A stretch of DNA of 11,207 nucleotides from Candidatus Iainarchaeum sp. (GTDB lineage Archaea; Iainarchaeota; Iainarchaeia; Iainarchaeales; CSSED10-239). Shown here piece by piece: positions 1 to 11,207 of the stretch. The position numbers and the translations under genes were made by a program. Below the pieces are notes generated by a model. It saw only the letters and a list, made by a program, of their open reading frames with translations, ran no database searches and had not been told where the DNA came from. The stretch lies in contig JAQUVR010000014.1 of assembly GCA_028693335.1 (NCBI GenBank), forward strand, positions 1 through 11,207. The letters run 5' to 3'. Each line of letters starts with the position of its first letter. Positions within the stretch are counted from its first letter, which is position 1.

Positions 1-3000
1 CTCTATTATCTTTTAATTTCTTTGATTCATTTAAATAATCTGTCCAAGTAATGAATGGATTTGCTTTTAGATCTAATGAAACAGGATTATTTATAGATTC
101 TGTAATAAAATATGAGAAATCATTATTATTAGATTCTGAAACTAAAGCATATAATGGAATTGGATATGTTGGACTATATTTTAATTCTGCAGTAAATCTA
201 CCTTGGTTATCTATTCCTAATAAATTAATTTCTAATAACTTTCTATTAGATTTTATAGATTGTTCTACATCTGATTTGTCAGTAATTTCAGTATAATTAC
301 TTGCTAGTAAATACATAAATCCTTGTGTTTGAGAATCATTTCTATCATACAAATAAATCAAATCATTGCCAGAGCTAGAAACTGGAATTTTAAGATCATT
401 ATCTAAATAATCAACAGTCACTCCATAATTATCTCTGTGAACTTTTTGAGTACTTCCAACAAGACCCATATTTCCATTTATTGGTAAATAATATAAGAAA
501 TTATTTAATGCATATGGTAATTCTTGTACTTGTGTTAAAGTAATGTGTAATTGAGAAGATCTATCAACATAATAATCAGAATTAATAGAAATTTTATACT
601 TACCTGGTTTTGTTGTTTGTTGTTCTCTAGAATCTAATTTTGTAATTTTTAATTTATTATCATTAATATTTTGATCAGAAAATATATTTCTATTTTCTTC
701 ACCAAGTCCATTGATAAAACCAGTACTAAAATCACGATCAAAAACAATAAAGTCTTTTAATAGGTCTTTAGATATTCCATCAGCCATTAAATAAATATAA
801 TAGTTTTCTGTATTGTTTTTTATTTGATCCAATTTAGAAGAATTTTTTATTAAGTTTATTATGCTTATTAACATCTGAGTAGAATCACAATGATTCTTTG
901 TTAGATTATAATCATAATCTGAATCAACACATTCTGTTTCCCAACTATTTACTGGAGATTGTTGACCTGAGGTTCCCCAATAATAAAGGATTCTTGGAGA
1001 ATTTTCTCTACCAACTCTACAATCTATTTTTTGAGAACAATTTGCAATTATAAAAAAGTCATCATTAGCTTGGGTTATTTGATGACCAGACCCTAAACAA
1101 ACATTACTAGTTAATCCATATTTGTTTAATGTTTGTTCTAAATTCTCAGCATAAACTGTAATCGAAATTATAACATCTCTTTGTGGTGTTGGAGTAATAG
1201 ATGTATTATTTATTTTGTAATTAAATAAAAGTTCTCTTTTAATATCCAAAGACAATAAACCAACAACATCATCACCAACAACATCTAAAATCTCTTGATA
1301 TTCTGCACTATAATTTATTAATATTTGATTTGTTTGTTCTGGATTTATTGTTGATAATTCATTTATTACTGTTTTTTCAATATTAAAATTATTAGATAAA
1401 TAATCTGGAGCTGTAGTGTTTTTTTGCAAATCAATACTTTCTAAGTTTAATGAATAGGTGCTAGTTTTATTTTCAACAGCATACAATTTATTAGAAGATT
1501 CACAAGAATTACTATTACAATTTAAAGAAACATTTGGGTGTAGATTTTCTATTTCTAAAACATTTTCTTCTCTATAAAGATTGGTGTTAATTGTAAAACC
1601 ATGTCTTCCAATAGAAACCCCTAAATGATCAGAAATATTAAAATCTATTGAAATGGTTCCTTCTTTTTTATTTGTAAAATTTTCATTACTAAAACCAACA
1701 GTAAAATAAAATGTTCCTGTTTGACCAGGGTTAATTAAACAAATGCTTGAAATTGGGCTAACATGTTCTTGAACATCAGAACCACTTGCAAAATAAAAAG
1801 CATCATCTATTTTTTTATCATTAGAAAAATTTGCTTGATTTCCTTGAGTTGAACAAGATAAAGAATATTCTACATTTATATTTCCAGATATTTGTGTAGA
1901 TTTTAGAATATCAACACCAGAAATATTTATGGCATTATTTGAATTATTCTTTATACTATAACTAAATGATCTTTGATTAGCAACAGTAGTTATTAATTCC
2001 AAAGTTTTTGTATCTTTATTAAATCCATTTAAATGAGGATTAACGCCAACACCTTCAAGATTTGTATCTAAATTTATTCTTAAAATATTAATTATTGTGT
2101 CAGCATTTAAAAAGAAAATAATTGGATTATTTAAATAATTACCAAGATTTACTTGATTTTCAAACTTTCCTAAAACAAAGTTTTTATTTGGTGAGATGTC
2201 TTTATTTAAAAGAGTATTTGCTTTAATTAAAGTTAAATTACTAGATATATCTCTTGGAATAGGATTATTTTGTGCATTAATATCAATATTCATATTTAAA
2301 ATATTCAAATCATTGTTTGTATATCCATCATTTAATATAAACTGAACAGATCTAAGATTTATTTGTCTGGTTGTATCTTTTTTAATAAAATAATCTTTTT
2401 GTTTTGTACTTGTTTCTTTAATGCCATTAACACTAAAAATTGCATTATTGAAATTTAACTTGTTTGTTGATGTTATTTCTGAACCCAAAGAAGATTCTCC
2501 AAGCTTATTATAAACACCAAGTCCAGAATAAACTCTTTTTTTTATTTTATAAATATTATTTTCTAGACCATAACTACTATCAAACAAGAATCTAAAAGTA
2601 ACATTAGAATCAACAAAAGAAAGTGGAACAATTACAGATCTATTATTTAATACTCCTTGTGAATTTGTTGTGCCTAAATCAATACAAGCATTATCAATAT
2701 CAATTAAACAATATTTTATATTAATATTTTGTAATGGCGCACCTAATTTACTTCTCACTAAAAAATTAACATCATTTTCTCCAGTATATATTCTATTTTG
2801 ATTTGTATTGTCACTTGTTATTATATCAATAAAGAAATCACTTTTACTATATGCTCTAACATTTTGTTTTAATGGACTAGGATTTGTAATTTCTAATATG
2901 TTGGTTGTAATTACTGGCACTTGATTACTATTAGTACTAAAGAAATTATCAACAGAAAATGTGCCGTTTAGATCAAACCAATAACCAATTGTTGCGATTT

Positions 3001-6000
3001 TATTATTAATTGTAAATTGAGTATTATTTACTTGTTGATTTACTAAAGATTGATTCTTTTCTAAAAATTTATAATTTAAATATTTTAAATTATTATTTGT
3101 ATATTGAGATGACCAATTAATATTTCCTGTTGCAGATTCTTGTTTTAGATATAAAAATTTGGTGTTATAATTATAATTATCACCAATATACAAGATATAG
3201 CTATTTCCATTTATCTCTGCTTCAACAGAATTACTATCATAAACTTTTCCAATAAAACTATAATTGCTGGAACTAAAAGGAATCTGCTGATAATTAGATC
3301 TGGCATAGAAAAAACCATTAGGCTTTACTGACCAATTTTGCCAATTTGTAAATGTTGGTGAAAATGAATAGTTACTACTATTGTTTGTAAGTGCTCTATA
3401 ATAGTGTTTATAATTATTTACATTTGTAACACCATTTTGGAACTTAAAATTAATAGTAAAAATAATTATATCTGCATCTGCATTAGTAAAATCAATTTTT
3501 ACCCATTTAGATTTATTGCTTGGACAACCATTTAAGCTTATATCTGTTTGATAATTATTATTAAAATGAGCAAAATTCCAATCTAACAACTCACCAGAAA
3601 ATCTACACCCAAATTGTCTTGTTGTTTGTGGGGCAAATACTGATTTTATATATAAAAAATCATCATTTAATAAAAGATTATTGCCTAATCTAATAAACCC
3701 ATATGAAAGATCTCTATCCTGTTTTGGGGATAAAGTTATTTTATATTTTAATTGATATTCTCTATCAATATTATAATTTCCAACAAAATTTAGTTGATCT
3801 ATTTCTATAGAACCACTTTCATCATAAAGACCTAAAAACTCAATATCTGAATATGGGGTTGCTTGTGGTTGTGTTAAAATAACACTTTTATAAACAACAT
3901 CTCCAGGGATCAATCTAATTAATTCTGTTTGATAGGTCGTATAGTTTACAGCACTTACAATTGCATAAATATCTCGATCACTTGAATTAAAGACATATTC
4001 TTTATTTAGATCACCAGTATTTTCTACATCTCTTGTAACATAGTTTGTAATTTGTGATCCAGTACCATCAAAAAAAGAAACACCATAAGTAGATGTATTT
4101 ACTCTTAGATTTAAAACTTTTGATTGATTTTGTAAATTTACTGTTAAATTTATTGTTTCATTTGAATCTAATAATCTTGTTTCAGAACTACCTTGAATAC
4201 TTTCATAAGGTAAAACAGACATTGCATAATACCTTATATTTGATCTAACCCCTCTAAAAGAAACAACTCCTTGAGAATTTGTAATTAATGGATCTGTTGG
4301 GTATGGTGTGTCTTTATCATCTCCAGATCCATAAAATAAATATACTGTTGCACCATCAATATCTATTCCACTATATTTAACATTAACATTAACGTCTCCA
4401 CTGTTTAACCATGATTGGTATTCTAAATAAATAACTTTATTTACATCTAAAGTATTAATAATTTCTGGATTTGGTGGCAAATATCCATATTGCTCAGTAC
4501 CAGAAACTCTTATTTGATAAATATAATCTGTAAGTACATTAAATTCTGTTCTATTAACATCCGTTCTTGTTGCAACCAATGAAAAAGAATTACTGTCATT
4601 TGATTTTTTCCATAAAGATATATTTCCTTTTACTAGTGACATAGTGTTTTGATCTTTTAAAGTTACATCAATATACCCAAGAGTACCTAATTGACATGTG
4701 CCATCAGGATTAATAATAAGATATGGAGTTAACAAATCATAACTACAATTTAGATCTCCTTGGGTTGTACAAAATTCAGCATATATTGGATTACTACAAT
4801 CAATTTCATTTATTTCTTGTATACTAAACAAAGTGTGATTAACTGAAGTTGTATTATTTAAAACAACTTGGTGAGTTTTTGATTTTGGAATAGTAATATA
4901 TCCTGATTTATCAACAGATAATAAATAATTACCAGGCGTTAAATTAAATATTGTTTTACCATAATAATCTGTCGCAAGAGTAGCAACAGCAATAGATGAT
5001 TCATCAATTGTTGTTGTTGGGTCATTTACTTTAAATACCTTTACAACAGCATCTGTTATTGCAGAACCAGTAGCACCAGAAACTGTTACTTCTAGTTTAC
5101 CAGAATTGCTATTTTTTGAGGATAAATTAATTCTATTTCCTTCAGGAACAACCATGTTGTTAATAGTTTCAAAATCTTGAGAATAAATATCTATTCTCAA
5201 ATCTCCACAGTTAGCTGGTTGATTAACATTTATTTTTCCAGTTATAACTACTTGTTGTTTTGGAGATGGGTCTTTGTTTTCTGCTGAACAATATAATCTC
5301 ACATCTAAATTTTTGCCAATTATTAAAACATTATTAGATAAAAACATTATTTCTCTTTCTTGTTCAGGAGATACGATGTTTTTTACTCCAGTTGTATTGA
5401 TATCTAAAACAATTTTTTCAATTATTTGTTTTTTATTAAAAATTATGTGTTTTGTTTTTGTATTATATGCTTCTTTTGTTGCAGTAACAGCAATACTTTG
5501 TTTTTTATTAAACTTATGATCATTAAAATTTACTTCCCCCCAAGCATCTGTTAACTTACTTTCTAATAATTCTTCATCTACTGTTAGTTTTACAGTTGCG
5601 CCAGTTATCGCAGAGCCAGTCACATCAACAACAGACACCACAATATTTCCTTGACTTGATCCTAAGAATAAATTTACTAGTGTTCCTGATGATATTAAAA
5701 AATATATCAAACCAATCAATGCAAATATAAATATTAAAAACAAAATAAAACTTGGAAACTTTTTATCTATTTTATCAACAAGTTTATTGATTGGAATAAC
5801 CTTATCTATTTTATCCATGAGATCATAATATCTATCTTCAAAAAAGAAATATATTTTTTTAAAGAACAAACCAATTTTATTGAATGGATTTTGCTTTGGT
5901 TTTTTGACAACATTCTTTTTTTGATCTTTCTTTAAATTTTGATTTATTTCTTGTAATAACTTTTCAGCTTCTTTTTTTTGTTTATCATTTTCTTTTTGAT

Positions 6001-6202
6001 TAGTTGTTTTTTCTAAAACAGCGTCATCTTTAAAAGAACAATTATCTTTAACTAATTTGTTTATTACTAAGTCAGCAACATCAGAAGAATAACCATCATT
6101 TAGAATTATTTTCTTTAGATCTTCTCTTGTAAAAGATTTTGTTTTTGATTTTAGAACATTATATATTTGTTCTGCTCTTTTTTCTTTTTCTTGGTTATCC
6201 AT
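1..6202 (-). CDS. Giant membrane-anchored surface protein (adhesin-like). The 3' end is cut by the window edge, with 2067 codons visible.
   Basis: The minus-strand ATG at 6202..6200 is preceded by an in-frame TGA (+ 6233..6235 'tca'). Hand translation of the reverse complement gave 2067 consecutive sense codons down to base 2. The frame was re-verified at bases 2..55 (...FITWTDYLNESKKLKDNR) and 2249..2263 (PIPRD). An open frame of this length is not plausible by chance in DNA this AT-rich. It is missing from the supplied track, presumably because no stop lies inside the window. The protein begins MDNQEKEKRAEQIYNVLKSKTKSFTREDLKK. Confidence 0.9.
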   Translation of the reverse strand, partial: MDNQEKEKRAEQIYNVLKSKTKSFTREDLKKIILNDGYSSDVADLVINKLVKDNCSFKDDAVLEKTTNQKENDKQKKEAEKLLQEINQNLKKDQKKNVVKKPKQNPFNKIGLFFKKIYFFFEDRYYDLMDKIDKVIPINKLVDKIDKKFPSFILFLIFIFALIGLIYFLISSGTLVNLFLGSSQGNIVVSVVDVTGSAITGATVKLTVDEELLESKLTDAWGEVNFNDHKFNKKQSIAVTATKEAYNTKTKHIIFNKKQIIEKIVLDINTTGVKNIVSPEQEREIMFLSNNVLIIGKNLDVRLYCSAENKDPSPKQQVVITGKINVNQPANCGDLRIDIYSQDFETINNMVVPEGNRINLSSKNSNSGKLEVTVSGATGSAITDAVVKVFKVNDPTTTIDESSIAVATLATDYYGKTIFNLTPGNYLLSVDKSGYITIPKSKTHQVVLNNTTSVNHTLFSIQEINEIDCSNPIYAEFCTTQGDLNCSYDLLTPYLIINPDGTCQLGTLGYIDVTLKDQNTMSLVKGNISLWKKSNDSNSFSLVATRTDVNRTEFNVLTDYIYQIRVSGTEQYGYLPPNPEIINTLDVNKVIYLEYQSWLNSGDVNVNVKYSGIDIDGATVYLFYGSGDDKDTPYPTDPLITNSQGVVSFRGVRSNIRYYAMSVLPYESIQGSSETRLLDSNETINLTVNLQNQSKVLNLRVNTSTYGVSFFDGTGSQITNYVTRDVENTGDLNKEYVFNSSDRDIYAIVSAVNYTTYQTELIRLIPGDVVYKSVILTQPQATPYSDIEFLGLYDESGSIEIDQLNFVGNYNIDREYQLKYKITLSPKQDRDLSYGFIRLGNNLLLNDDFLYIKSVFAPQTTRQFGCRFSGELLDWNFAHFNNNYQTDISLNGCPSNKSKWVKIDFTNADADIIIFTINFKFQNGVTNVNNYKHYYRALTNNSSNYSFSPTFTNWQNWSVKPNGFFYARSNYQQIPFSSSNYSFIGKVYDSNSVEAEINGNSYILYIGDNYNYNTKFLYLKQESATGNINWSSQYTNNNLKYLNYKFLEKNQSLVNQQVNNTQFTINNKIATIGYWFDLNGTFSVDNFFSTNSNQVPVITTNILEITNPSPLKQNVRAYSKSDFFIDIITSDNTNQNRIYTGENDVNFLVRSKLGAPLQNINIKYCLIDIDNACIDLGTTNSQGVLNNRSVIVPLSFVDSNVTFRFLFDSSYGLENNIYKIKKRVYSGLGVYNKLGESSLGSEITSTNKLNFNNAIFSVNGIKETSTKQKDYFIKKDTTRQINLRSVQFILNDGYTNNDLNILNMNIDINAQNNPIPRDISSNLTLIKANTLLNKDISPNKNFVLGKFENQVNLGNYLNNPIIFFLNADTIINILRINLDTNLEGVGVNPHLNGFNKDTKTLELITTVANQRSFSYSIKNNSNNAINISGVDILKSTQISGNINVEYSLSCSTQGNQANFSNDKKIDDAFYFASGSDVQEHVSPISSICLINPGQTGTFYFTVGFSNENFTNKKEGTISIDFNISDHLGVSIGRHGFTINTNLYREENVLEIENLHPNVSLNCNSNSCESSNKLYAVENKTSTYSLNLESIDLQKNTTAPDYLSNNFNIEKTVINELSTINPEQTNQILINYSAEYQEILDVVGDDVVGLLSLDIKRELLFNYKINNTSITPTPQRDVIISITVYAENLEQTLNKYGLTSNVCLGSGHQITQANDDFFIIANCSQKIDCRVGRENSPRILYYWGTSGQQSPVNSWETECVDSDYDYNLTKNHCDSTQMLISIINLIKNSSKLDQIKNNTENYYIYLMADGISKDLLKDFIVFDRDFSTGFINGLGEENRNIFSDQNINDNKLKITKLDSREQQTTKPGKYKISINSDYYVDRSSQLHITLTQVQELPYALNNFLYYLPINGNMGLVGSTQKVHRDNYGVTVDYLDNDLKIPVSSSGNDLIYLYDRNDSQTQGFMYLLASNYTEITDKSDVEQSIKSNRKLLEINLLGIDNQGRFTAELKYSPTYPIPLYALVSESNNNDFSYFITESINNPVSLDLKANPFITWTDYLNESKKLKDNR
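3869..5650 (-). other. Array of at least five tandem prealbumin-like / CarboxypepD_reg-like beta-sandwich domains in the giant protein (aa ~185-778). A sixth likely copy lies at aa ~1143-1215 (nt ~2558..2776).
   Basis: The family signature G-x-[IV]-x-V-x-[VD]-x-x-G-x-x-[IL]-x-[GD]-A-x-V-x-[LV] ... T[DN]-x-x-G-x-x-x-F ... Y-x-[LI]-x-V-x-x-x-GY recurs. Copy 1: GNIVVSVVDVTGSAITGATVKLTVDEE..TDAWGEVNF..VTATKEAY. Copy 2: GKLEVTVSGATGSAITDAVVKVFKVND..TDYYGKTIFNLTPGNYLLSVDKSGY. Copy 3: GYIDVTLKDQNTMSLVKGNISLW..YQIRVSGTEQYGY. Copy 4: GDVNVNVKYSGIDIDGATVYLFYG..TNSQGVVSFRGV..YYAMSV. Copy 5: LNLRVNTSTYGVSFFDGTGSQI..IYAIVSAVNYTTY. Recognised by eye, not by HMM. Confidence 0.65.
5687..5758 (-). other. Single transmembrane anchor of the giant protein (aa ~149-172, FPSFILFLIFIFALIGLIYFLISS), predicted N-in/C-out
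   Basis: This is an uninterrupted hydrophobic stretch of about 24 residues. It is preceded by a strongly Lys-rich segment (DKIDKKF) and followed by uncharged SSGTLVNLFLGSSQGN. The positive-inside rule therefore places the first ~148 aa in the cytoplasm. Confidence 0.75.
5763..5815 (-). repeat. Perfect 14-nt direct repeat (+ strand ttatctattttatc at 5763..5776 and 5802..5815), spaced 39 nt in frame. Each copy encodes DKIDK, immediately N-terminal to the TM anchor.
   Basis: Both copies were read directly from the sequence. The protein context is MDKIDKVIPINKLVDKIDKKFPSF. Confidence 0.85.
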
Positions 6203-6228
6203 AATCAATCTATTTTTGTAATAATTTT

Positions 6229-8355
6229 TTATTCAAAGCCATATATTGGAATAAAAGGAAAATCAAATGTTTTTGATGACCCATTATCTAAAGTAATTGT
6301 TCCTTTAATTTTATATTGTTGTCCTGAACAATATGCTTTTGAATCAGTAACTTCACTTAATAAAACATTATATCTTGGAGAAAACAATTTATCTTTTGAT
6401 AAAACATATTCATATACAGCAGGATCTGAAAATCTTTGACTTATTGTTCCAGTAATTTGAGAATTATTTGTATAAACTACATATTCTTCACTTGGCAATA
6501 AGTGATTTGGTTTAAAGATCTGCCCATTTTCTTTAAGATAATATATTTTTAAATCTCCAGCATTAATTGTTCCAGAATTATTAGAATAAATTGTATAGGT
6601 GTCATCCACCCTATTTAGATTAGTTAATTCTAATGCATCACAAATCGGACAAGTAATTGCTGGTCTATTAAAGACAAGTATTCTTGATTTATCATAATCA
6701 AAATCATTTAGAAAGTGATCTGTATTGGCAGAATTAATAGTTAATTGGCCTGTTTGATATTCTAATCTTTTTAATCCAGATGATTTTATATAACAGGCAT
6801 TGATCTCTATTTTTGTATTGTCTATTTGATATGCAGAAATTGTTTTTAACTTCTTTGGAAGATAACTTCCACTTGAAAGATAATTTATTTTAATTTCTCC
6901 TGGACTGAATTGAGTTTCTGGAGAATTTGATGTACAACTTAGATAATCGGCAGTATCTTTTATGGTTTGATTAACTCTACTAATTATTTCTATTCCTCTA
7001 TTATTATTTTCTAAATAATTAATATTAATATCTCCGACAATGCCTGGAACTCCAAAATAACATGGATAAGAAGAACTATAAATCCCCTTTTTGCCAGATA
7101 AGATATTTATTAAAACATTCTTGTGATTATTTATAAAATTTGAAATATTTAAACTTCCAACAGAGCCACCATTACCACCATAATTATAAGATCCATCACT
7201 AACTTTTGCTCCTGCGTTACCGCCATTTCCGGCATTTATAAAGAAAAATAAATTTCCATCTAGTATTAAATCTACAATATTAATATCAAAAATATTTCCA
7301 CCATTGCCACCTAAACTACTATCCCCAGAAGTATCTGAACTACAATTATTTGTGCCTGCAGAACCACCATTACCACCATTACCAGTTAATAAACTTATAT
7401 TAAAAGCAGTTTCTGGTTTAGAATTAATTTTTGAAACATTAAAATCAATGGAACCAGCATCAGCACCGTTACCACCTGGTCTTGGCTCTCCTGGACAAAA
7501 CCAACCACCACCTTCTCTAGAGCCTTTGCCGCCATTGCCACCATTACCTGACTTTAAATTTAATAAAAATAAAGCATCTTCTCTCAAATCAATAAAATTA
7601 ATTTGAATATTTGCATCTCCACCAATTCCGCCATTTCCGCCATCTTTATTCTTTTTTTTCTTACCATCAGATCCTTTACCACCATCTCCTGCTATTAGAT
7701 CTAATCTTAAATTCCCATAATTTTTAATTTGATTACAATCAAATAATGCGGGACCACCTGACACACCTGAATAGGTGGCATCATAGTTATCACCAGGGCT
7801 GCTTGCGTTTTTTGAAATAATGCTTAAATTAAAATCAGAATTTTGATCTATAAATAAATTATTAGCATTCATCTTTATTCCGTGTGCTGGCCAATATGAT
7901 GAATCACTTGACCATGATCTTTCTGCTTCTAAAACATAAAATGCAGATCTATTCTGCATACTTGAATAAATGTCTGCATTAATATCAATTGTTGTTAATC
8001 TAACAACATTATCCAAATTATCAACATTAATAGTTAAATTTGCATTATTTCTAAATTCTATTACATCCATACCAGAAACAACATAATTATCTCTAGATCC
8101 AGAAATATTTATTGTCTTGTCGCTATCAATCACAAAAACAATTTTTTTATTTTCACAGTTTTGTGGTTGTAATTTTAATTCAGAATTATCTATTAAAGAT
8201 ACATTTAATATAACTTCAACATTATCACCAATAATTTGAGAAGATAAAAACGTGCTCAAACTTTGATCTGTAATAGAAACTGTACATCCAAAAATATCTG
8301 CACTAAATATAATTATCAAAAACAAAACTATTATTTTTAATTTTTTATAAATCAT
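6229..8355 (-). CDS. Secreted (possibly lipid-anchored) Gly/Asn-rich repeat protein, 708 aa, predicted beta-solenoid
   Basis: This complete ORF is in the supplied track and ends in TAA. The N-terminus MIYKKLKIIVLFLIIIFSADIFGC has the form of a signal peptide. The central part carries GNGGNGG repeats and many alternating hydrophobic-x-hydrophobic-x-N strands (TINISG, LTINVDN, IQINFIDL, IFDINIVDL). There is no C-terminal hydrophobic tail. Confidence 0.9.
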   Translation of the reverse strand: MIYKKLKIIVLFLIIIFSADIFGCTVSITDQSLSTFLSSQIIGDNVEVILNVSLIDNSELKLQPQNCENKKIVFVIDSDKTINISGSRDNYVVSGMDVIEFRNNANLTINVDNLDNVVRLTTIDINADIYSSMQNRSAFYVLEAERSWSSDSSYWPAHGIKMNANNLFIDQNSDFNLSIISKNASSPGDNYDATYSGVSGGPALFDCNQIKNYGNLRLDLIAGDGGKGSDGKKKKNKDGGNGGIGGDANIQINFIDLREDALFLLNLKSGNGGNGGKGSREGGGWFCPGEPRPGGNGADAGSIDFNVSKINSKPETAFNISLLTGNGGNGGSAGTNNCSSDTSGDSSLGGNGGNIFDINIVDLILDGNLFFFINAGNGGNAGAKVSDGSYNYGGNGGSVGSLNISNFINNHKNVLINILSGKKGIYSSSYPCYFGVPGIVGDININYLENNNRGIEIISRVNQTIKDTADYLSCTSNSPETQFSPGEIKINYLSSGSYLPKKLKTISAYQIDNTKIEINACYIKSSGLKRLEYQTGQLTINSANTDHFLNDFDYDKSRILVFNRPAITCPICDALELTNLNRVDDTYTIYSNNSGTINAGDLKIYYLKENGQIFKPNHLLPSEEYVVYTNNSQITGTISQRFSDPAVYEYVLSKDKLFSPRYNVLLSEVTDSKAYCSGQQYKIKGTITLDNGSSKTFDFPFIPIYGFE
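7021..7770 (-). repeat. Four to five tandem protein repeats of ~44-55 aa (aa ~196-445). Each has two Gly/Asn-rich turns and two short beta-strand-like segments.
   Basis: R1: LIAGDGGKGSDGKKKKNKDGGNGGIGGDANIQINFIDLREDALFLLNL. R2: KSGNGGNGGKGSREGGGWFCPGEPRPGGNGADAGSIDFNVSKINSKPETAFNISL. R3: LTGNGGNGGSAGTNNCSSDTSGDSSLGGNGGNIFDINIVDLILDGNLFFFIN. R4: AGNGGNAGAKVSDGSYNYGGNGGSVGSLNISNFINNHKNVLINI. A degenerate fifth copy follows: LSGKKGIYSSSYPCYFGVPGIVGDININYL. At DNA level, CCATTnCCnCC-type motifs recur at about 7165, 7217, 7297, 7363, 7466, 7523 and 7619. The line 7501..7560 is about 50% G+C. Confidence 0.85.
8284..8355 (-). other. Signal peptide of the 708-aa protein, with a possible lipobox-like I-F-G-C (Cys24)
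   Basis: The region has KK, then a 14-residue hydrophobic core, then SADIFG|C. Phe at position -2 is atypical for a lipobox, so lipidation is only a possibility. Confidence 0.5.
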
Positions 8356-8365
8356 AATTATTCAT

Positions 8366-10156
8366 TTATTTATAAAGTTTATAGGGATAAATTAATCTAA
8401 TTAAATCATTTTCATAAGTCAGATTTGAATCAATCGCATAGATACTGTTGTCGCCTATGTAATTACTATTAATTTCTGTTTGATTATAAATTTTAAATTT
8501 AGAATTATTTATCTTTAATAACAACTGTGCATTAAATTGAAATTTCTTTAAATTGTTATCATACATCAATAATTTTGGATTTGAAAGATTAGGAACAATA
8601 TTATCTAAAGGAAATATTTTACTAATATTACCAAATAAAACAGGATTTGCAAACTTTTCATTAGACATATTTAGATAAGAGGTATAAGAATTTGAAGAAT
8701 AATTTACTGCATTACAAGTGTTTTTATGAAAATTAAATATTTTGTTATTTTCTAAATTAGAAATTCCAACAGCATTAAGATCTAAATTATTAGAGTAATT
8801 GAAAAAAGAATACACATTATAATCTGCATTAGCTGGTTTATTTAAACTTTCAGAACAAGTAGTAAAATAAACAATATTGCCTTTTTTATTATTTAATATC
8901 TTTGGATAATTAATACCTGCAAAATTTTCAAAGAAAAAAGAAGTACTTGCTGTTTGAATAGATGATAAAATATTTATTTCTGATTTTTTTGAATTTATTT
9001 CTATTTCGCCATTATTTATTATAGATTTAAAAATAATAGAGTCATTTAAAATTTGTTCAATTACAAAATATTGAATCTCTGGAAACCACAGATTTGATAT
9101 AGAGCAAGAATCAGAAGTGCCTTCTGCATTATATATATATAAAATATATTCATTTTCTTCTAAATTTGAAAAACTACTATCATCACACAGTTCACAAGGG
9201 CCCCCACAATCTATTCCTTCTTCTCCAAATATTGGATCAAACGCTTCATTTTCACAATGTTCTGGTAAACTCACACTATCTTCTGAAGTTGGAGAATTAG
9301 CAAAATAAAAATATTTTCTAGGACAAGAAACTAATGATGGATAAACATAATTATAATTTAAACCTGATAAAGAAGAATAATTTTGAACAATATAATTTTT
9401 AATATTTGTAAATATATGCAGTTTTGAATTTTGGGAAATATAAATCTCAGTGTTAGAAAAATCAATACTATCTGAACCAATAACTAAAGGGTTTTCCCTA
9501 GCAGTCTTTATACTTGGAAAAAAATAACCTAGTTGATTATTATTATTTGTATAATAATAATGATTTTCTAAAGTTCTCATAAAATTAATATCATTATTAG
9601 ACATAAAATTAATTACAAGCTTGGATCCGTTTCCAGAAATATTTATTTTGGAAATATTACTTTTTAATAATATTCTTGAATGATTGTCTGGCAAAGAAGA
9701 AACAACACCAGCAAACATATTTTTGTAATATCTTAAAAATTGAAATGTCTTACCATTAGATACATCTAATTCTTTAAAATTTAATATTAATCCTTCTTTT
9801 GATAAATTTCTGTTGTCTGGAATTAAAACTGTTGCAGATCTCTCAGATATTAAAAGTCTTATATTGTTTTGAATATTACCAAATTCATCCTTTATATATA
9901 TATTATTAGATCTTAAAATAAAATAATCCGCAACAGAATCTAATTTACAAGTAACTATATCAGAAATTAAATTAATATCTGTAACTACACATGTTGCTGG
10001 ATTGTCTGTCAATTCTATATTATTTAAATTAAATGCATTAATATTAATATAAAGACCATTTATTATCAATTGATCATTAATTTCTAAAGAGAACACAGAA
10101 TTACATAAAACAATTAAAAATAAACTTATGATTACTAATTTTAATGATCTAAACAT
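8366..10156 (-). CDS. Secreted Asn-rich protein of unknown function, 596 aa, with a central four-Cys module
   Basis: This complete ORF is in the supplied track and ends in TAA. The N-terminus MFRSLKLVIISLFLIVLCNSVFS|LEIN has the form of a cleavable signal peptide. A GGAG motif lies 7 nt upstream of the ATG. There is no C-terminal anchor. Confidence 0.9.
   Translation of the reverse strand: MFRSLKLVIISLFLIVLCNSVFSLEINDQLIINGLYININAFNLNNIELTDNPATCVVTDINLISDIVTCKLDSVADYFILRSNNIYIKDEFGNIQNNIRLLISERSATVLIPDNRNLSKEGLILNFKELDVSNGKTFQFLRYYKNMFAGVVSSLPDNHSRILLKSNISKINISGNGSKLVINFMSNNDINFMRTLENHYYYTNNNNQLGYFFPSIKTARENPLVIGSDSIDFSNTEIYISQNSKLHIFTNIKNYIVQNYSSLSGLNYNYVYPSLVSCPRKYFYFANSPTSEDSVSLPEHCENEAFDPIFGEEGIDCGGPCELCDDSSFSNLEENEYILYIYNAEGTSDSCSISNLWFPEIQYFVIEQILNDSIIFKSIINNGEIEINSKKSEINILSSIQTASTSFFFENFAGINYPKILNNKKGNIVYFTTCSESLNKPANADYNVYSFFNYSNNLDLNAVGISNLENNKIFNFHKNTCNAVNYSSNSYTSYLNMSNEKFANPVLFGNISKIFPLDNIVPNLSNPKLLMYDNNLKKFQFNAQLLLKINNSKFKIYNQTEINSNYIGDNSIYAIDSNLTYENDLIRLIYPYKLYK
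9185..9256 (-). other. Compact Cys module C-x15-C-x3-C-x2-C (CENEAFDPIFGEEGIDCGGPCELC, aa 301-324)
   Basis: Read directly from the sequence: GGA GAA GAA GGA ATA GAT TGT GGG GGC CCT TGT GAA CTG TGT. It contains a local G+C spike (gggccccc at 9198..9205) in otherwise AT-rich coding sequence. Confidence 0.8.
10088..10156 (-). other. Signal peptide of the 596-aa protein (aa 1-23)
   Basis: It has Arg/Lys at positions 3 and 5, a hydrophobic core LVIISLFLIVL, and small residues in S-V-F-S before the acidic mature start LEIND. Confidence 0.65.
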
Positions 10157-10163
10157 AAAGTAT

Positions 10164-10167
10164 CTCC
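10164..10167 (-). promoter_or_regulatory. Shine-Dalgarno core GGAG for the 596-aa gene
   Basis: The minus strand reads ...TTTTTGGAGATACTTTATG, with GGAG 7 nt before the ATG at 10156. Confidence 0.55.
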
Positions 10168-10181
10168 AAAAATATATTTAT

Positions 10182-10213
10182 CTATATATATAGTTTTAGA
10201 TATATTTTAAAAA
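10182..10213 (-). promoter_or_regulatory. Candidate promoter with TATA-box-like elements, in the only sizeable intergenic gap
   Basis: The minus strand reads ...AGTAATCTTTTTAAAATATATCTAAAACTATATATATAGATAAATATATTTTTGGAGATACTTTATG. TTTTTAAAATATA (10201..10213) lies 45-57 nt upstream of the ATG. The perfect palindrome CTATATATATAG (10182..10193) lies 26-37 nt upstream. I cannot distinguish an archaeal TATA box from a bacterial -10 element by eye in DNA this AT-rich. Confidence 0.35.
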
Positions 10214-10227
10214 GATTACTTTTTAAT

Positions 10228-10253
10228 AAAAAAAGAAAAGAATTAGAAAAAAA
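10228..10253 (-). terminator. Candidate oligo-T termination signals downstream of the 138-aa gene
   Basis: The minus strand directly after the TAA reads TTATTTTTTTCTAATTCTTTTCTTTTTTTATT, with two T7 runs (A-runs on + at 10247..10253 and 10228..10234). I see no convincing GC-rich hairpin. This would fit archaeal-style oligo-T termination, but it could equally be AT-rich spacer. Confidence 0.3.
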
Positions 10254-10256
10254 TAA

Positions 10257-10673
10257 TTACTTTTCTGCTTCTTCTGTTGTATTATCTTCGGTTGCTTTAC
10301 ATTTACACAAACGACCAATTAGACTATTCTGGCCAACCCATCCACAAAACCAACTACAGATCCCTCTTTGAAAATGAGTGTCAATTTTATCTGGAGTTAT
10401 TCCTTCTTTTTTTAATTGATTTATTATTTCATTTTCAGCATCAATTGCAGAACGAGCATCACTTGATTTTAATATATCTGTATATATCTCTAAATATTCT
10501 TGATTTGTATGTAATGCAACAATATAATTTAACTTCTCATTAGAATCATTTATTACTGCTCTTTTTGCCATACCAGCCCCAATAAAATTACTTAATAAAA
10601 CCCCAAAAATCAACCCAAGTACAAAGAATAAAGCATACATTGGCACTTTTTGACTGTTACCTATTTTTTTCAT
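10257..10673 (-). CDS. Small N-anchored membrane protein, 138 aa, with a helical ectodomain and a C-terminal C-x3-C-x12-C-x-C cluster
   Basis: This complete ORF is in the track and ends in TAA. A strong Shine-Dalgarno motif, AGGAGTGA, lies 9 nt upstream. The TM segment MYALFFVLGLIFGVLLSNFIGAGM (aa 12-35, nt 10569..10640) follows MKKIGNSQK. The Cys cluster GICSWFCGWVGQNSLIGRLCKC is at nt 10299..10358. Confidence 0.8.
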   Translation of the reverse strand: MKKIGNSQKVPMYALFFVLGLIFGVLLSNFIGAGMAKRAVINDSNEKLNYIVALHTNQEYLEIYTDILKSSDARSAIDAENEIINQLKKEGITPDKIDTHFQRGICSWFCGWVGQNSLIGRLCKCKATEDNTTEEAEK

Positions 10674-10682
10674 AGTTTTTAA

Positions 10683-10690
10683 TCACTCCT
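10683..10690 (-). promoter_or_regulatory. Shine-Dalgarno sequence AGGAGTGA for the 138-aa gene
   Basis: The + strand 'tcactcct' at 10683..10690 is AGGAGTGA on the minus strand, 9 nt before the ATG at 10673. It resembles the canonical GGAGGTGA anti-16S-tail motif. Confidence 0.7.
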
Positions 10691-10699
10691 TTTTATTTT

Positions 10700-11207
10700 T
10701 TAATTACCTATAACCCCTAAATCAAAGCCGTCAAAATTTCCAGTATAAATACTATTTTCTGGATATATCTTTGCTGGATTCCAATAATACTCAGATCTTA
10801 GACCATCATCTGAATTGGTTACACAAATATTTCCATTTTCTATATTTTCAAATACAGATCTAATGCTATTAATTCTATTTGTATTTGATAGATCTGGTAT
10901 TGAAATACTTGAAGTCAATGGCTTATTTATGTTTCTTATAAATTTTACTGATGGATCTTGAGTAGATCTAGTAATTAAGGTGTAGTTCTTTGGTGTGCCA
11001 CCTCTAGTATATGGTGTATAAATAATTGTTCTTAAATTTACTTGTCCTCTTCTAGAAACATTCTCCCAATCAACAGCATAACTGTTATATATTTGTTCAT
11101 CTAATCTACTCATTCTGTCTGAGAAATTAACAAACCTTGCTTGAGTTGTGTCTCCTGAAAAGTCTGTATGATCTCCAAACCCTGTCCAAAATAATAAATT
11201 ATTTTGA
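10700..11207 (-). CDS. C-terminal part of a larger protein of unknown function. The 5' end lies beyond the right window edge.
   Basis: The track lists 10700..11113 from an ATG. The same frame stays open for all 31 upstream codons to base 11206 (QNNLLFWTGFGDHTDFSGDTTQARFVNFSDR-MSRLDEQ...). No Shine-Dalgarno-like motif precedes the 11113 ATG, so that Met is probably internal. The stop is TAA at 10700..10702. Confidence 0.75.
   Translation of the reverse strand, partial: QNNLLFWTGFGDHTDFSGDTTQARFVNFSDRMSRLDEQIYNSYAVDWENVSRRGQVNLRTIIYTPYTRGGTPKNYTLITRSTQDPSVKFIRNINKPLTSSISIPDLSNTNRINSIRSVFENIENGNICVTNSDDGLRSEYYWNPAKIYPENSIYTGNFDGFDLGVIGN

Follow-up and report, generated by a model that had tools for sequence, protein, structure and literature searches.

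The 11,207-bp stretch of DNA analysed here (hereafter the window, to whose positions all coordinates refer unless a locus label precedes them) appears from sequence comparison to be the central third of a co-directional, lineage-specific locus. We propose, with moderate confidence, that this locus builds a multi-protein cell-surface fibre apparatus in a small-genome DPANN archaeon. The database record of the window is labelled Candidatus (I)ainarchaeum sp., and Ca. Iainarchaeum is placed in Iainarchaeota, within Nanobdellati/DPANN. The full locus consists of 7 to 10 genes over roughly 30 kb and extends past the window on both sides. Two of its products, giantA and giantB, are very large, membrane-anchored proteins that share a C-terminal head module, and a gene for an unrelated, secreted protein, g708, directly precedes giantB wherever giantB-type genes were found. 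The genes and the main intergenic region of the window, with sizes in amino acids (aa) and nucleotides (nt), are as follows.

2..6202, minus strand: giantB, N-terminal 2,067 aa of ~2,220 (open frame, ATG at 6202)
6229..8355, minus strand: g708, open reading frame (ORF) of 708 aa
8366..10156, minus strand: g596, ORF of 596 aa
10157..10256, minus strand: intergenic region before g596, 100 nt (sequence inspection)
10257..10673, minus strand: g138, ORF of 138 aa
10700..11206, minus strand: giantA, C-terminal 168 aa (end of the head module; open frame, start beyond the right end of the window)

The minus strand carries all substantial reading frames of the window, with intergenic gaps of 26, 10, 100 and 26 nt; the last ~153 aa of giantB lie beyond the left end, leaving 2,067 codons inside. 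An earlier note on this DNA had described an island of five co-directional genes. It had strand and gaps exactly right, but what it counted as the fifth gene is a fragment, the last 168 aa of giantA. Instead of five complete genes or a self-contained island, the window holds this fragment, one accessory gene and three members of a larger locus. By themselves, five co-directional genes are weak evidence (p ~0.06); the signal that exceeds chance comes from synteny kept across many divergent loci, not from co-direction alone.

Synteny of the complete locus

We compared ~25 loci (labelled L0xx) from Logan, JGI, ENA and GTDB genomes, with an alignment of the nine closest sequences as the query of the genome scan. 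Sequencing runs that carry the locus include SRR22315505, SRR23823812 and SRR11582162. The near-identical strain aside, the proteins of these loci are 26-62% identical to those of the window. Locus L010, on the 104.9-kb contig JASEYN010000352.1, is 97% identical to the window and carries the whole region; more distant relatives, on contigs of 0.52-0.84 Mb, are labelled only 'archaeon'. The gene order in L010 is F967 - giantA - g596 - g709 - giantB - TMa - TMb - s77, where F967 has ~970-980 aa, giantA 2,519 aa, giantB 2,220 aa, and TMa and TMb 118 aa each. The ~25 loci repeat the arrangement F967 - giantA - variable slot - g708 - giantB - TMa - TMb: when gene order was checked in related genomes, as the earlier note had suggested, the homologues were always co-localised, in the same order, at identities down to 26%.

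Within this conserved order, a g708-type gene is located directly upstream of every giantB-type gene (15/15, with spacers of -4 to 26 nt). Extra tandem g708-giantB pairs are present in L007, L009, L011 and L012, and in L007, L011 and L012 one tandem unit is preceded by a g596/s120-type gene. Because unrelated families stay adjacent through repeated tandem duplication, g708, together with the protein encoded in the slot before it, and giantB are likely to work together. The invariant adjacency of g708 and giantB is the strongest evidence for joint function, and it lends support to the multi-component surface structure that had been envisaged from the window alone.

Two small polytopic membrane proteins, TMa and TMb (~115-123 aa), are always encoded after giantB and are 38-91% identical across lineages; a two-transmembrane s77-type protein of 72-77 aa often comes after them. 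None of the three has a family assignment. Representative regions that encompass TMa and TMb, with or without s77, are the following.

L010:20626-21693
L003:18888-19614
L006:18823-19857
L007:18530-19665

In other genomes, the locus continues upstream of F967 with a second co-directional, N-anchored, giantA-like protein of 1,778-1,867 aa, which matches CarboxypepD_reg (62.8 bits) and Big_1 (39.6 bits), and with a further co-directional protein of >1,170 aa without family matches. This extension was seen at L020 and L025:1-9144, as well as at L015, L019, L022 and L023. If L003 and L025 are combined, which we did by taking them as the same species given that their s120 proteins are 100% identical, the locus covers no less than 29 kb of a contig of 0.66-0.70 Mb, an estimated ~4%. 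The chromosomal context is also recognisable, with the genes for HU and HisRS downstream of the locus in the L003, L004 and L013 neighbourhoods. A serpin-family gene (PF00079) is located at L013:20199-21545, downstream of the locus after HU, at the place where L003 and L004 have HisRS.

Membrane-anchored rods with a shared head

The giantB protein of the window is 96% identical to the full-length sequence P0042 (2,220 aa) and co-linear with L010:13958-20620, and its orthologues in L003-L013 are 31-62% identical. Four segments can be delineated.

5768..6202, minus strand: cytoplasmic N-terminal region of giantB, aa 1 to ~145 (translation, alignment with giantA)
5660..5764, minus strand: single transmembrane segment of giantB, aa ~147-181 (hydropathy)
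1133..5650, minus strand: rod of giantB, tandem beta-sandwich, immunoglobulin (Ig)-like domains, aa ~185-1690 (Pfam, AlphaFold2 (AF2), Foldseek)
2..1132, minus strand: first ~380 aa of the giantB head module, truncated by the window (conserved motifs, homology to giantA and F967)

The transmembrane segment lies in a hydrophobic stretch at aa 145-181, the only place in 2,067 aa where the hydropathy of a 19-aa window reaches 1.6 or more, with a peak of 3.16. Given this single internal hydrophobic segment and none at the C-terminus, giantB is predicted to be a type II membrane protein, with ~1,900 or more residues outside the cell. The earlier note had described the giant as N-anchored; the single transmembrane segment near the N-terminus is indeed there, but ~145 cytoplasmic residues precede it. 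The cytoplasmic region ends in the conserved motif FFEDRYYDLMDKIDKVIPINKL directly before the membrane segment, and the FEDxYY…IP.NK motif beside that segment is kept in all giants. In the long orthologues, the first ~120 cytoplasmic residues of giantB form a small conserved domain (…GYS…A..V…) that is missing from the giantB paralogues of 1,980-2,000 aa (L007a, L009, L011, L012).

The assignment of the extracellular part to a rod of Ig-like domains draws on family profiles and on a structural model. Residues 370-458 of giantB match CarboxypepD_reg at 30.4 bits, below the cut-off of 32.3, and PF13620 is precomputed on 12 of the 15 giantB homologues. The ~2,520-aa giantA exceeds the cut-offs for both CarboxypepD_reg (45.5 bits, cut-off 32.3) and SpaA (27.0 bits, cut-off 23.1). 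In the AF2 model of giantB aa 868-2067, for which the overall predicted local distance difference test score (pLDDT) is 57.5, about six consecutive beta-sandwich domains reach pLDDT 70-90, and Foldseek matches the rod model to tandem Ig-like arrays (hydin, integrin, macroglobulin, PrgB, cadherin) with E values of 1e-15 to 1e-9. Sequence and profile searches of the PDB with giantB, giantA and F967 retrieved no relatives. N-glycosylation sequons, considered as a possible indicator of surface location, are not significantly enriched in giantB (48 observed vs 38±6 in shuffled sequences).

The large proteins of the locus are paralogues and share a distal head, two features that had been missed when the window was examined alone. 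At the N-terminal side, the motif, the transmembrane segment and the first Ig-like domains of giantA and giantB are homologous (hhalign E=8e-34, positions 116-840 of the hidden Markov model). At the C-terminal side, a head common to giantA, giantB and F967 is detected by hmmsearch with domain E values of 1e-15 to 1e-19, and by blastp the F967 head matches giantA at 7e-31 and giantB at 7e-7. The motifs xCD[AS]TQ..., Y[LI]M/T.DG/N.S.DF..DF, PG+Y+V/I, Y.MP.NG..G, Y/FSPS.P.P and a near-terminal AC[IV] are found in all three proteins; in giantB, the head contains invariant Cys and Trp and the HCDSxQ and YIYLMxDG motifs. F967 itself has a signal peptide and no stalk and is secreted. The giantA tail of the window is 79-82% identical to the ends of the giantA proteins of L002 and L006 (2,484-2,486 aa), at the DNA level it shares 98.8% identity with the end of the L010 gene (2,519 aa), and the 168 aa also match the F967 C-terminus, though more weakly. 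When the giantB head was the query of an exhaustive phmmer search, only 20 clusters (50% identity) were retrieved among 1.84e9 representatives, which points to a rare, lineage-restricted family; the module has no Pfam or PDB relatives and contains no recognised adhesive domain.

Some giantA proteins have, in mid-chain, a Gly/Ala-rich hydrophobic stretch of ~50 aa and variable length (aa ~1520-1573 of the protein encoded at L010:2335-9894). It is present in the L010, L003, L004, L012 and L013 orthologues and absent from those of L002 and L006. Its length would suffice for a helical hairpin, which could make a second insertion, either into the membrane of the same cell or into that of a partner cell.

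A secreted Gly-rich beta-solenoid as the probable partner of giantB

The g708 protein has 28 homologues, all unannotated, of which the named ones are labelled 'archaeon'. Two segments of the gene are of particular relevance.

8287..8355, minus strand: signal peptide of g708, aa 1-23, MIYKKLKIIVLFLIIIFSADIFG followed by C (hydropathy)
6976..7758, minus strand: Gly-rich repeat core of g708, aa ~200-460 (repeat listing, invariant Gly columns, DSSP)

The only hydrophobic segment of g708 is at aa 1-30, with a positive n-region and a small-residue c-region, and all 25 family members have an n-h-c signal peptide that ends in FA, FS or YA. A conserved Cys follows 1-5 residues past the cleavage point (for example, IFATTNC and VFSASC). 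We considered a lipoprotein and rejected the idea: the Cys comes directly after A/G/S in only some of the 25 members, and this variable position fits cleavage by signal peptidase I and a disulfide-bonded Cys better than a lipobox.

The AF2 model of g708, built from an alignment of 25 sequences, is a confident one (pLDDT 86.6, predicted template modelling score 0.84), and we assign the protein to the beta-solenoids on the basis of this model. It consists of an N-terminal beta region, the repeat core and a C-terminal beta-rich part with four conserved Cys. The core comprises 5-6 units with a period of ~50 aa, each a beta-hairpin with GNGGNGG / GGNGGxxG segments; these Gly-rich segments are coil according to DSSP, and most 10-residue blocks of the core have pLDDT >90. 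Weak matches to the Gly-rich N-terminal domain of Obg recur, both in PDB profile searches (Obg chains, E=0.03-0.23) and with Pfam GTP1_OBG, which matches 5 of the 25 family members (best E=3.5e-4), and hint at packing of the polyglycine-II type. A Foldseek search of the model against PDB and BFVD gave no match at E<=1e-3. The best match, which is not significant, was the beta-helical secretion domain of EtpA (E=0.022, TM-scores 0.16/0.25), and other weak ones were to small Ig/CopC-like sandwiches. At E<=1, none of the 25 members matches HemolysinCabind (RTX repeats), and the repeats are not GGxGxDxUx nonapeptides. The g708-type proteins end in F.FPF.PL....

The variable slot and the accessory gene g138

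Between giantA and g708 lies a slot that is occupied by proteins of 120-603 aa, among them secreted proteins of 120-220 aa in other lineages. In the window the slot contains g596 (NCBI protein MDD3244739.1, locus tag PHU47_01165), which has a single, signal-peptide-like hydrophobic segment at aa 1-27, with a positive n-region and a small-residue c-region. Its identity to the orthologues in L002 and L006 is 45%, that to the slot relative in L007 is 24%, and no Pfam or PDB match was found. Two of its segments are conserved.

9185..9256, minus strand: four-Cys mini-module of g596, aa 301-324, C301 ... EEGIDC317GGPC321ELC324 (alignment)
8369..8671, minus strand: C-terminal ~100 aa of g596, ending in ..LIRLIYPYKLYK (slot-protein comparison)

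The four-Cys module (C-x15-C-GG-x-C-x2-C, core EEGIDCGGxCxxC) is kept in L001, L002, L006 and L010 and has no Pfam match. Fourteen slot proteins share the ending ..L.L.(Y/F)P(Y/F)K(L/I).K (for example, those encoded at L003:9630-9992 and L011:9487-9930), and hhalign aligns the s120 family with aa 498-595 of g596 (E=6.8e-5, probability 63.5%). This comparison gives moderate support to the view that g596 is the long member of an s120/g596 slot family. The terminal strands of the slot proteins and of g708 might be assembly or docking motifs.

The g138 product has a hydrophobic, probably transmembrane, segment at aa 8-36 and a C-terminal CxxxC...CxC. The gene lies within a 450-nt indel (window 10250-10699) and is absent from the 97%-identical L010, so it is best regarded, by comparison of the loci, as an accessory, strain-variable member. 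Since L011 and L024 have a homologue of 37% identity at this very position after giantA, loss from L010, L002 and L006 is probably the better explanation than gain in the strain of the window. The possibility that g138 is a type IV pilin was rejected: its N-terminus, MKKIGNSQKVPMYALFFVLG..., lacks a class III cleavage motif, no Pfam match was found, and no locus contains a gene for a PilB/PilC-type ATPase or platform protein.

Taken as a set, the proteins of the window look as the earlier note had described them. Hydropathy places a signal peptide or a membrane anchor at each N-terminus visible in the window, and searches of Pfam, NCBIfam and PHROGs with the five products gave no enzymatic, regulatory or housekeeping match and no cytoplasmic annotation. 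None of the findings that the earlier note had listed as refuting its view was encountered. None of the window proteins has a C-terminal hydrophobic segment (visible C-termini include ...FDFPFIPIYGFE and the ...LIRLIYPYKLYK of g596). The observation that sorting tails are missing extends beyond the window, in that LPXTG or PGF-CTERM-like endings are absent from 13 g708-type proteins, 14 slot proteins, full-length giantB, giantA and F967.

A model of the apparatus and its alternatives

Under the model that we favour, two or more paralogous giants, giantA and giantB among them, would be held in the membrane of their own cell by the N-terminal transmembrane segment that follows a cytoplasmic helix motif. 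Each would project a rod of roughly a dozen Ig-like domains, presumably tens of nm long, ending in the shared Cys-containing head of 400-700 aa, and F967 would supply the same head in a stalk-less, secreted form. The g596 and g708 proteins would be exported by Sec and lose their signal peptides, leaving them without an anchor of their own, with g708 acting as the dedicated partner of giantB and the g596/s120-type protein as the third member of the unit. The secreted partners most likely dock non-covalently on giantB, which would yield a distal or lateral complex; TMa and TMb probably form a membrane platform; and the most likely function of the whole is contact with another cell or surface. 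Sequence evidence supports well the notion of a co-functioning, multi-protein surface apparatus, both with regard to the surface location of the locus proteins and with regard to their functional coupling, whereas we infer partner docking, the length of the rods, the role of the membrane proteins and attachment.

Several observations weigh against this model. The docking of g708 on giantB is a hypothesis, and hhalign comparisons of g708 with g596 and with giantB revealed no shared domains save signal peptides. Co-regulation in the absence of a complex, or a chaperone-like function of g708, would also fit the conserved adjacency. No recognised adhesive, lectin or host-binding domain was found in the locus proteins, and the putative business end of the rods, the giantB head, has pLDDT <50 in the AF2 model, a low confidence that probably reflects the small number of aligned sequences (13) and the truncation of the C-terminus. 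Attachment to a host and an episymbiotic lifestyle of this lineage are hypotheses. The taxonomy of the organism, in turn, follows record labels, not marker-gene analysis, the flanking genes at L027 (ABC transporter, nuclease, flavodoxin) are not taxonomically diagnostic, and a cultured representative of Iainarchaeota was not found in the literature searched. As far as the labels go, that of the window and those of the 'archaeon'-labelled relatives agree with the DPANN origin that had been guessed from the sequence.

The first alternative is an envelope scaffold similar to an S-layer, in which the giants would be anchored stalks and the secreted proteins an outer canopy, and the locus would serve the structure of the envelope and not contact with a host. 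Such a scaffold would have neighbouring genes for a secreted protein that lacks an anchor and for a beta-sandwich stalk fixed in the membrane, and the retention of the locus in every related genome examined, the ~4% of the contig that it takes up and its stable position near HU and HisRS in L003, L004 and L013 are in line with a basic envelope function. However, no S-layer family similarity was detected in Pfam, NCBIfam or PDB, either for the window proteins or, in the family searches, for their neighbours, and the locus encodes several headed giant paralogues of 2,000-2,500 aa, not one abundant lattice protein. Furthermore, the copy number of g708 and giantB and the accessory genes vary, as is more typical of interaction or adhesion loci, and the family is very rare, with the 20 clusters mentioned above. 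A scaffold is possible in principle but, on balance, unlikely.

It is further conceivable that the proteins are independent and became clustered through tandem duplication and shared regulation, such that the giants would be stand-alone adhesins, and g596 and g708 would act separately or be freely secreted. The paralogy of the giants is consistent with expansion by duplication, the families share no domains or recognisable docking module, and the occupants of the g596 slot differ widely in length and content. None of this explains readily why the g708-giantB adjacency (-4 to 26 nt) is invariant and is repeated as a tandem unit in four loci, or why gene order is kept down to 26% identity, and we regard independence as distinctly improbable. 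A more elaborate version of a contact apparatus, which we also rate as doubtful and slightly more so, is a novel, DPANN-specific cell-to-cell contact machine with hetero-oligomers of F967 and the heads, g708 (possibly of the polyglycine-II type) as tip or sheath, a base of the membrane proteins and, in some lineages, the giantA hairpin inserted into the membrane of the partner cell so as to bridge the two cells.

Parallel beta-helices are typical of polysaccharide lyases, hydrolases and phage tailspike depolymerases, and g708 is secreted and unanchored; its weak Foldseek matches include a phage protein of the pectate lyase superfamily (E=0.09) and beta-helix proteins of giant viruses. Accordingly, g708, and possibly g596, could be imagined as a secreted effector or enzyme, for example, a beta-helix depolymerase or lyase directed against the envelope of a host or prey and positioned by the giant. 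We consider this very unlikely: none of the 25 members matches Pfam Beta_helix, Pectate_lyase or a glycosidase family at E<=1, no structural match reaches E<=1e-3, and the invariant columns of g708 are mostly Gly, Cys and hydrophobic residues, with no obvious acidic/basic catalytic set.

A viral, proviral or mobile-element module (for example, tail-fibre-like proteins on a contig mistaken for a cellular one), one of the outcomes that the earlier note had named as fatal to its view, is effectively refuted, because, even if giant fibre-like proteins and beta-helices occur in viruses and g138 is an indel between strains, PHROGs gave nothing below E=0.04, a scan of IMG/VR and a tblastn search of GenBank phages found no relative, BFVD had no match at E<=1e-3, no flank contains an integrase, capsid or terminase gene, and the locus has a stable chromosomal context beside HisRS and HU on contigs of 0.66-0.84 Mb.

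Relationship to known surface systems

In the literature that we searched, on Iainarchaeota, carboxypeptidase-regulatory domains, attachment organelles and the giant or surface proteins of DPANN archaea, we found this locus nowhere described. The giants share with fibrillar adhesins of bacteria (for example, SiiE, the LapA/MpIBP-type RTX adhesins and the SpaA/Sdr-type proteins) the long tandem stalks of Ig-like, prealbumin-like or CarboxypepD_reg-type domains, with one end anchored and a distinct, non-repetitive module at the other. They differ in their N-terminal transmembrane anchor with its cytoplasmic motif, which takes the place of a sortase, type I secretion system (T1SS) retention or outer-membrane attachment, in a distal head that matches no known adhesive domain, in the archaeal host, and in the obligatory genes for unrelated secreted partners and small membrane proteins. 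The logic of the gene arrangement is that of SlaA/SlaB of Sulfolobales, where adjacent genes likewise encode an anchor-less secreted protein and the anchored beta-sandwich stalk that holds it. There is, however, no sequence or profile similarity to SlaA/SlaB; the anchor is N-terminal, not C-terminal; the stalks are about five times larger; and the locus has several headed paralogues and varies in copy number.

Among archaea, the SPEARE proteins are giant, lineage-specific surface proteins of Nanohaloarchaeota, also DPANN, with a proposed role in host interaction. The giants described here are much smaller (2,000-2,500 aa), belong to a multi-gene locus with partner proteins and yielded no enzymatic domain in family searches, serine proteases and restriction endonucleases included. 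The adhesin-like proteins of Methanobrevibacter and Methanosphaera combine Ig-like and beta-helix elements; those, however, are encoded by single genes and do not form heteromeric units, and no Pfam domain shared with them was detected. As a secreted, elongated beta-solenoid, g708 is comparable to the beta-helix adhesins of the TpsA type (for example, EtpA) and to autotransporter passengers, but it has no TPS domain, no locus contains a TpsB or transporter gene, and archaea of this kind have no outer membrane; moreover, its turns are GNGGNGG-type Gly runs that are weakly Obg-like.

In architecture, the giants look like fibrillar adhesins and the gene logic like that of SlaA/SlaB, whereas membership in any of the named families fails in sequence and profile tests. 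What appears to be new is the unusual N-terminal anchoring motif, the head that is common to anchored and free paralogues, and the obligate Gly-rich beta-solenoid partner.

How DPANN archaea recognise and hold other cells is a question for which contact structures have been imaged in few cultured lineages; to our knowledge, the genes behind these structures are mostly unknown. For an uncultured lineage, the locus supplies a defined and conserved set of candidate genes, which encode 3-4 paralogues with the head, the obligate beta-solenoid partner, a third partner that varies, and two membrane proteins. Devoting ~4% of a genome of roughly 0.7 Mb to such a set is a large investment. The locus also defines several protein families without Pfam, NCBIfam or PDB relatives, among which g708 stands out for combining a confidently predicted fold and ordered Gly-rich repeats with no significant structural match. 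Should docking of the partners on the giant prove real, the product would be an archaeal heteromeric fibrillar surface organelle that is assembled without pilus-type machinery.

Other features of the window

The window is AT-rich, with a GC content of 21-32% in 1-kb windows, and it contains no tRNA genes or Rfam elements. Its plus-strand ORFs are all short. The longest, at 7304-7606, would encode a Pro-rich protein of 100 aa and was rejected as a gene, since it merely reads the Gly-rich (GGN) repeats of g708 in antisense.

The 100-nt intergenic region before g596 (10157..10256) contains oligo-T runs, followed by a TATA-like, AT-rich stretch and by a GGAG placed 8 nt ahead of the g596 ATG. These elements make the region a probable boundary between transcription units or an internal promoter, and they can be read as an archaeal terminator followed by a promoter, which would suggest that g596, g708 and giantB form a transcription unit of their own.

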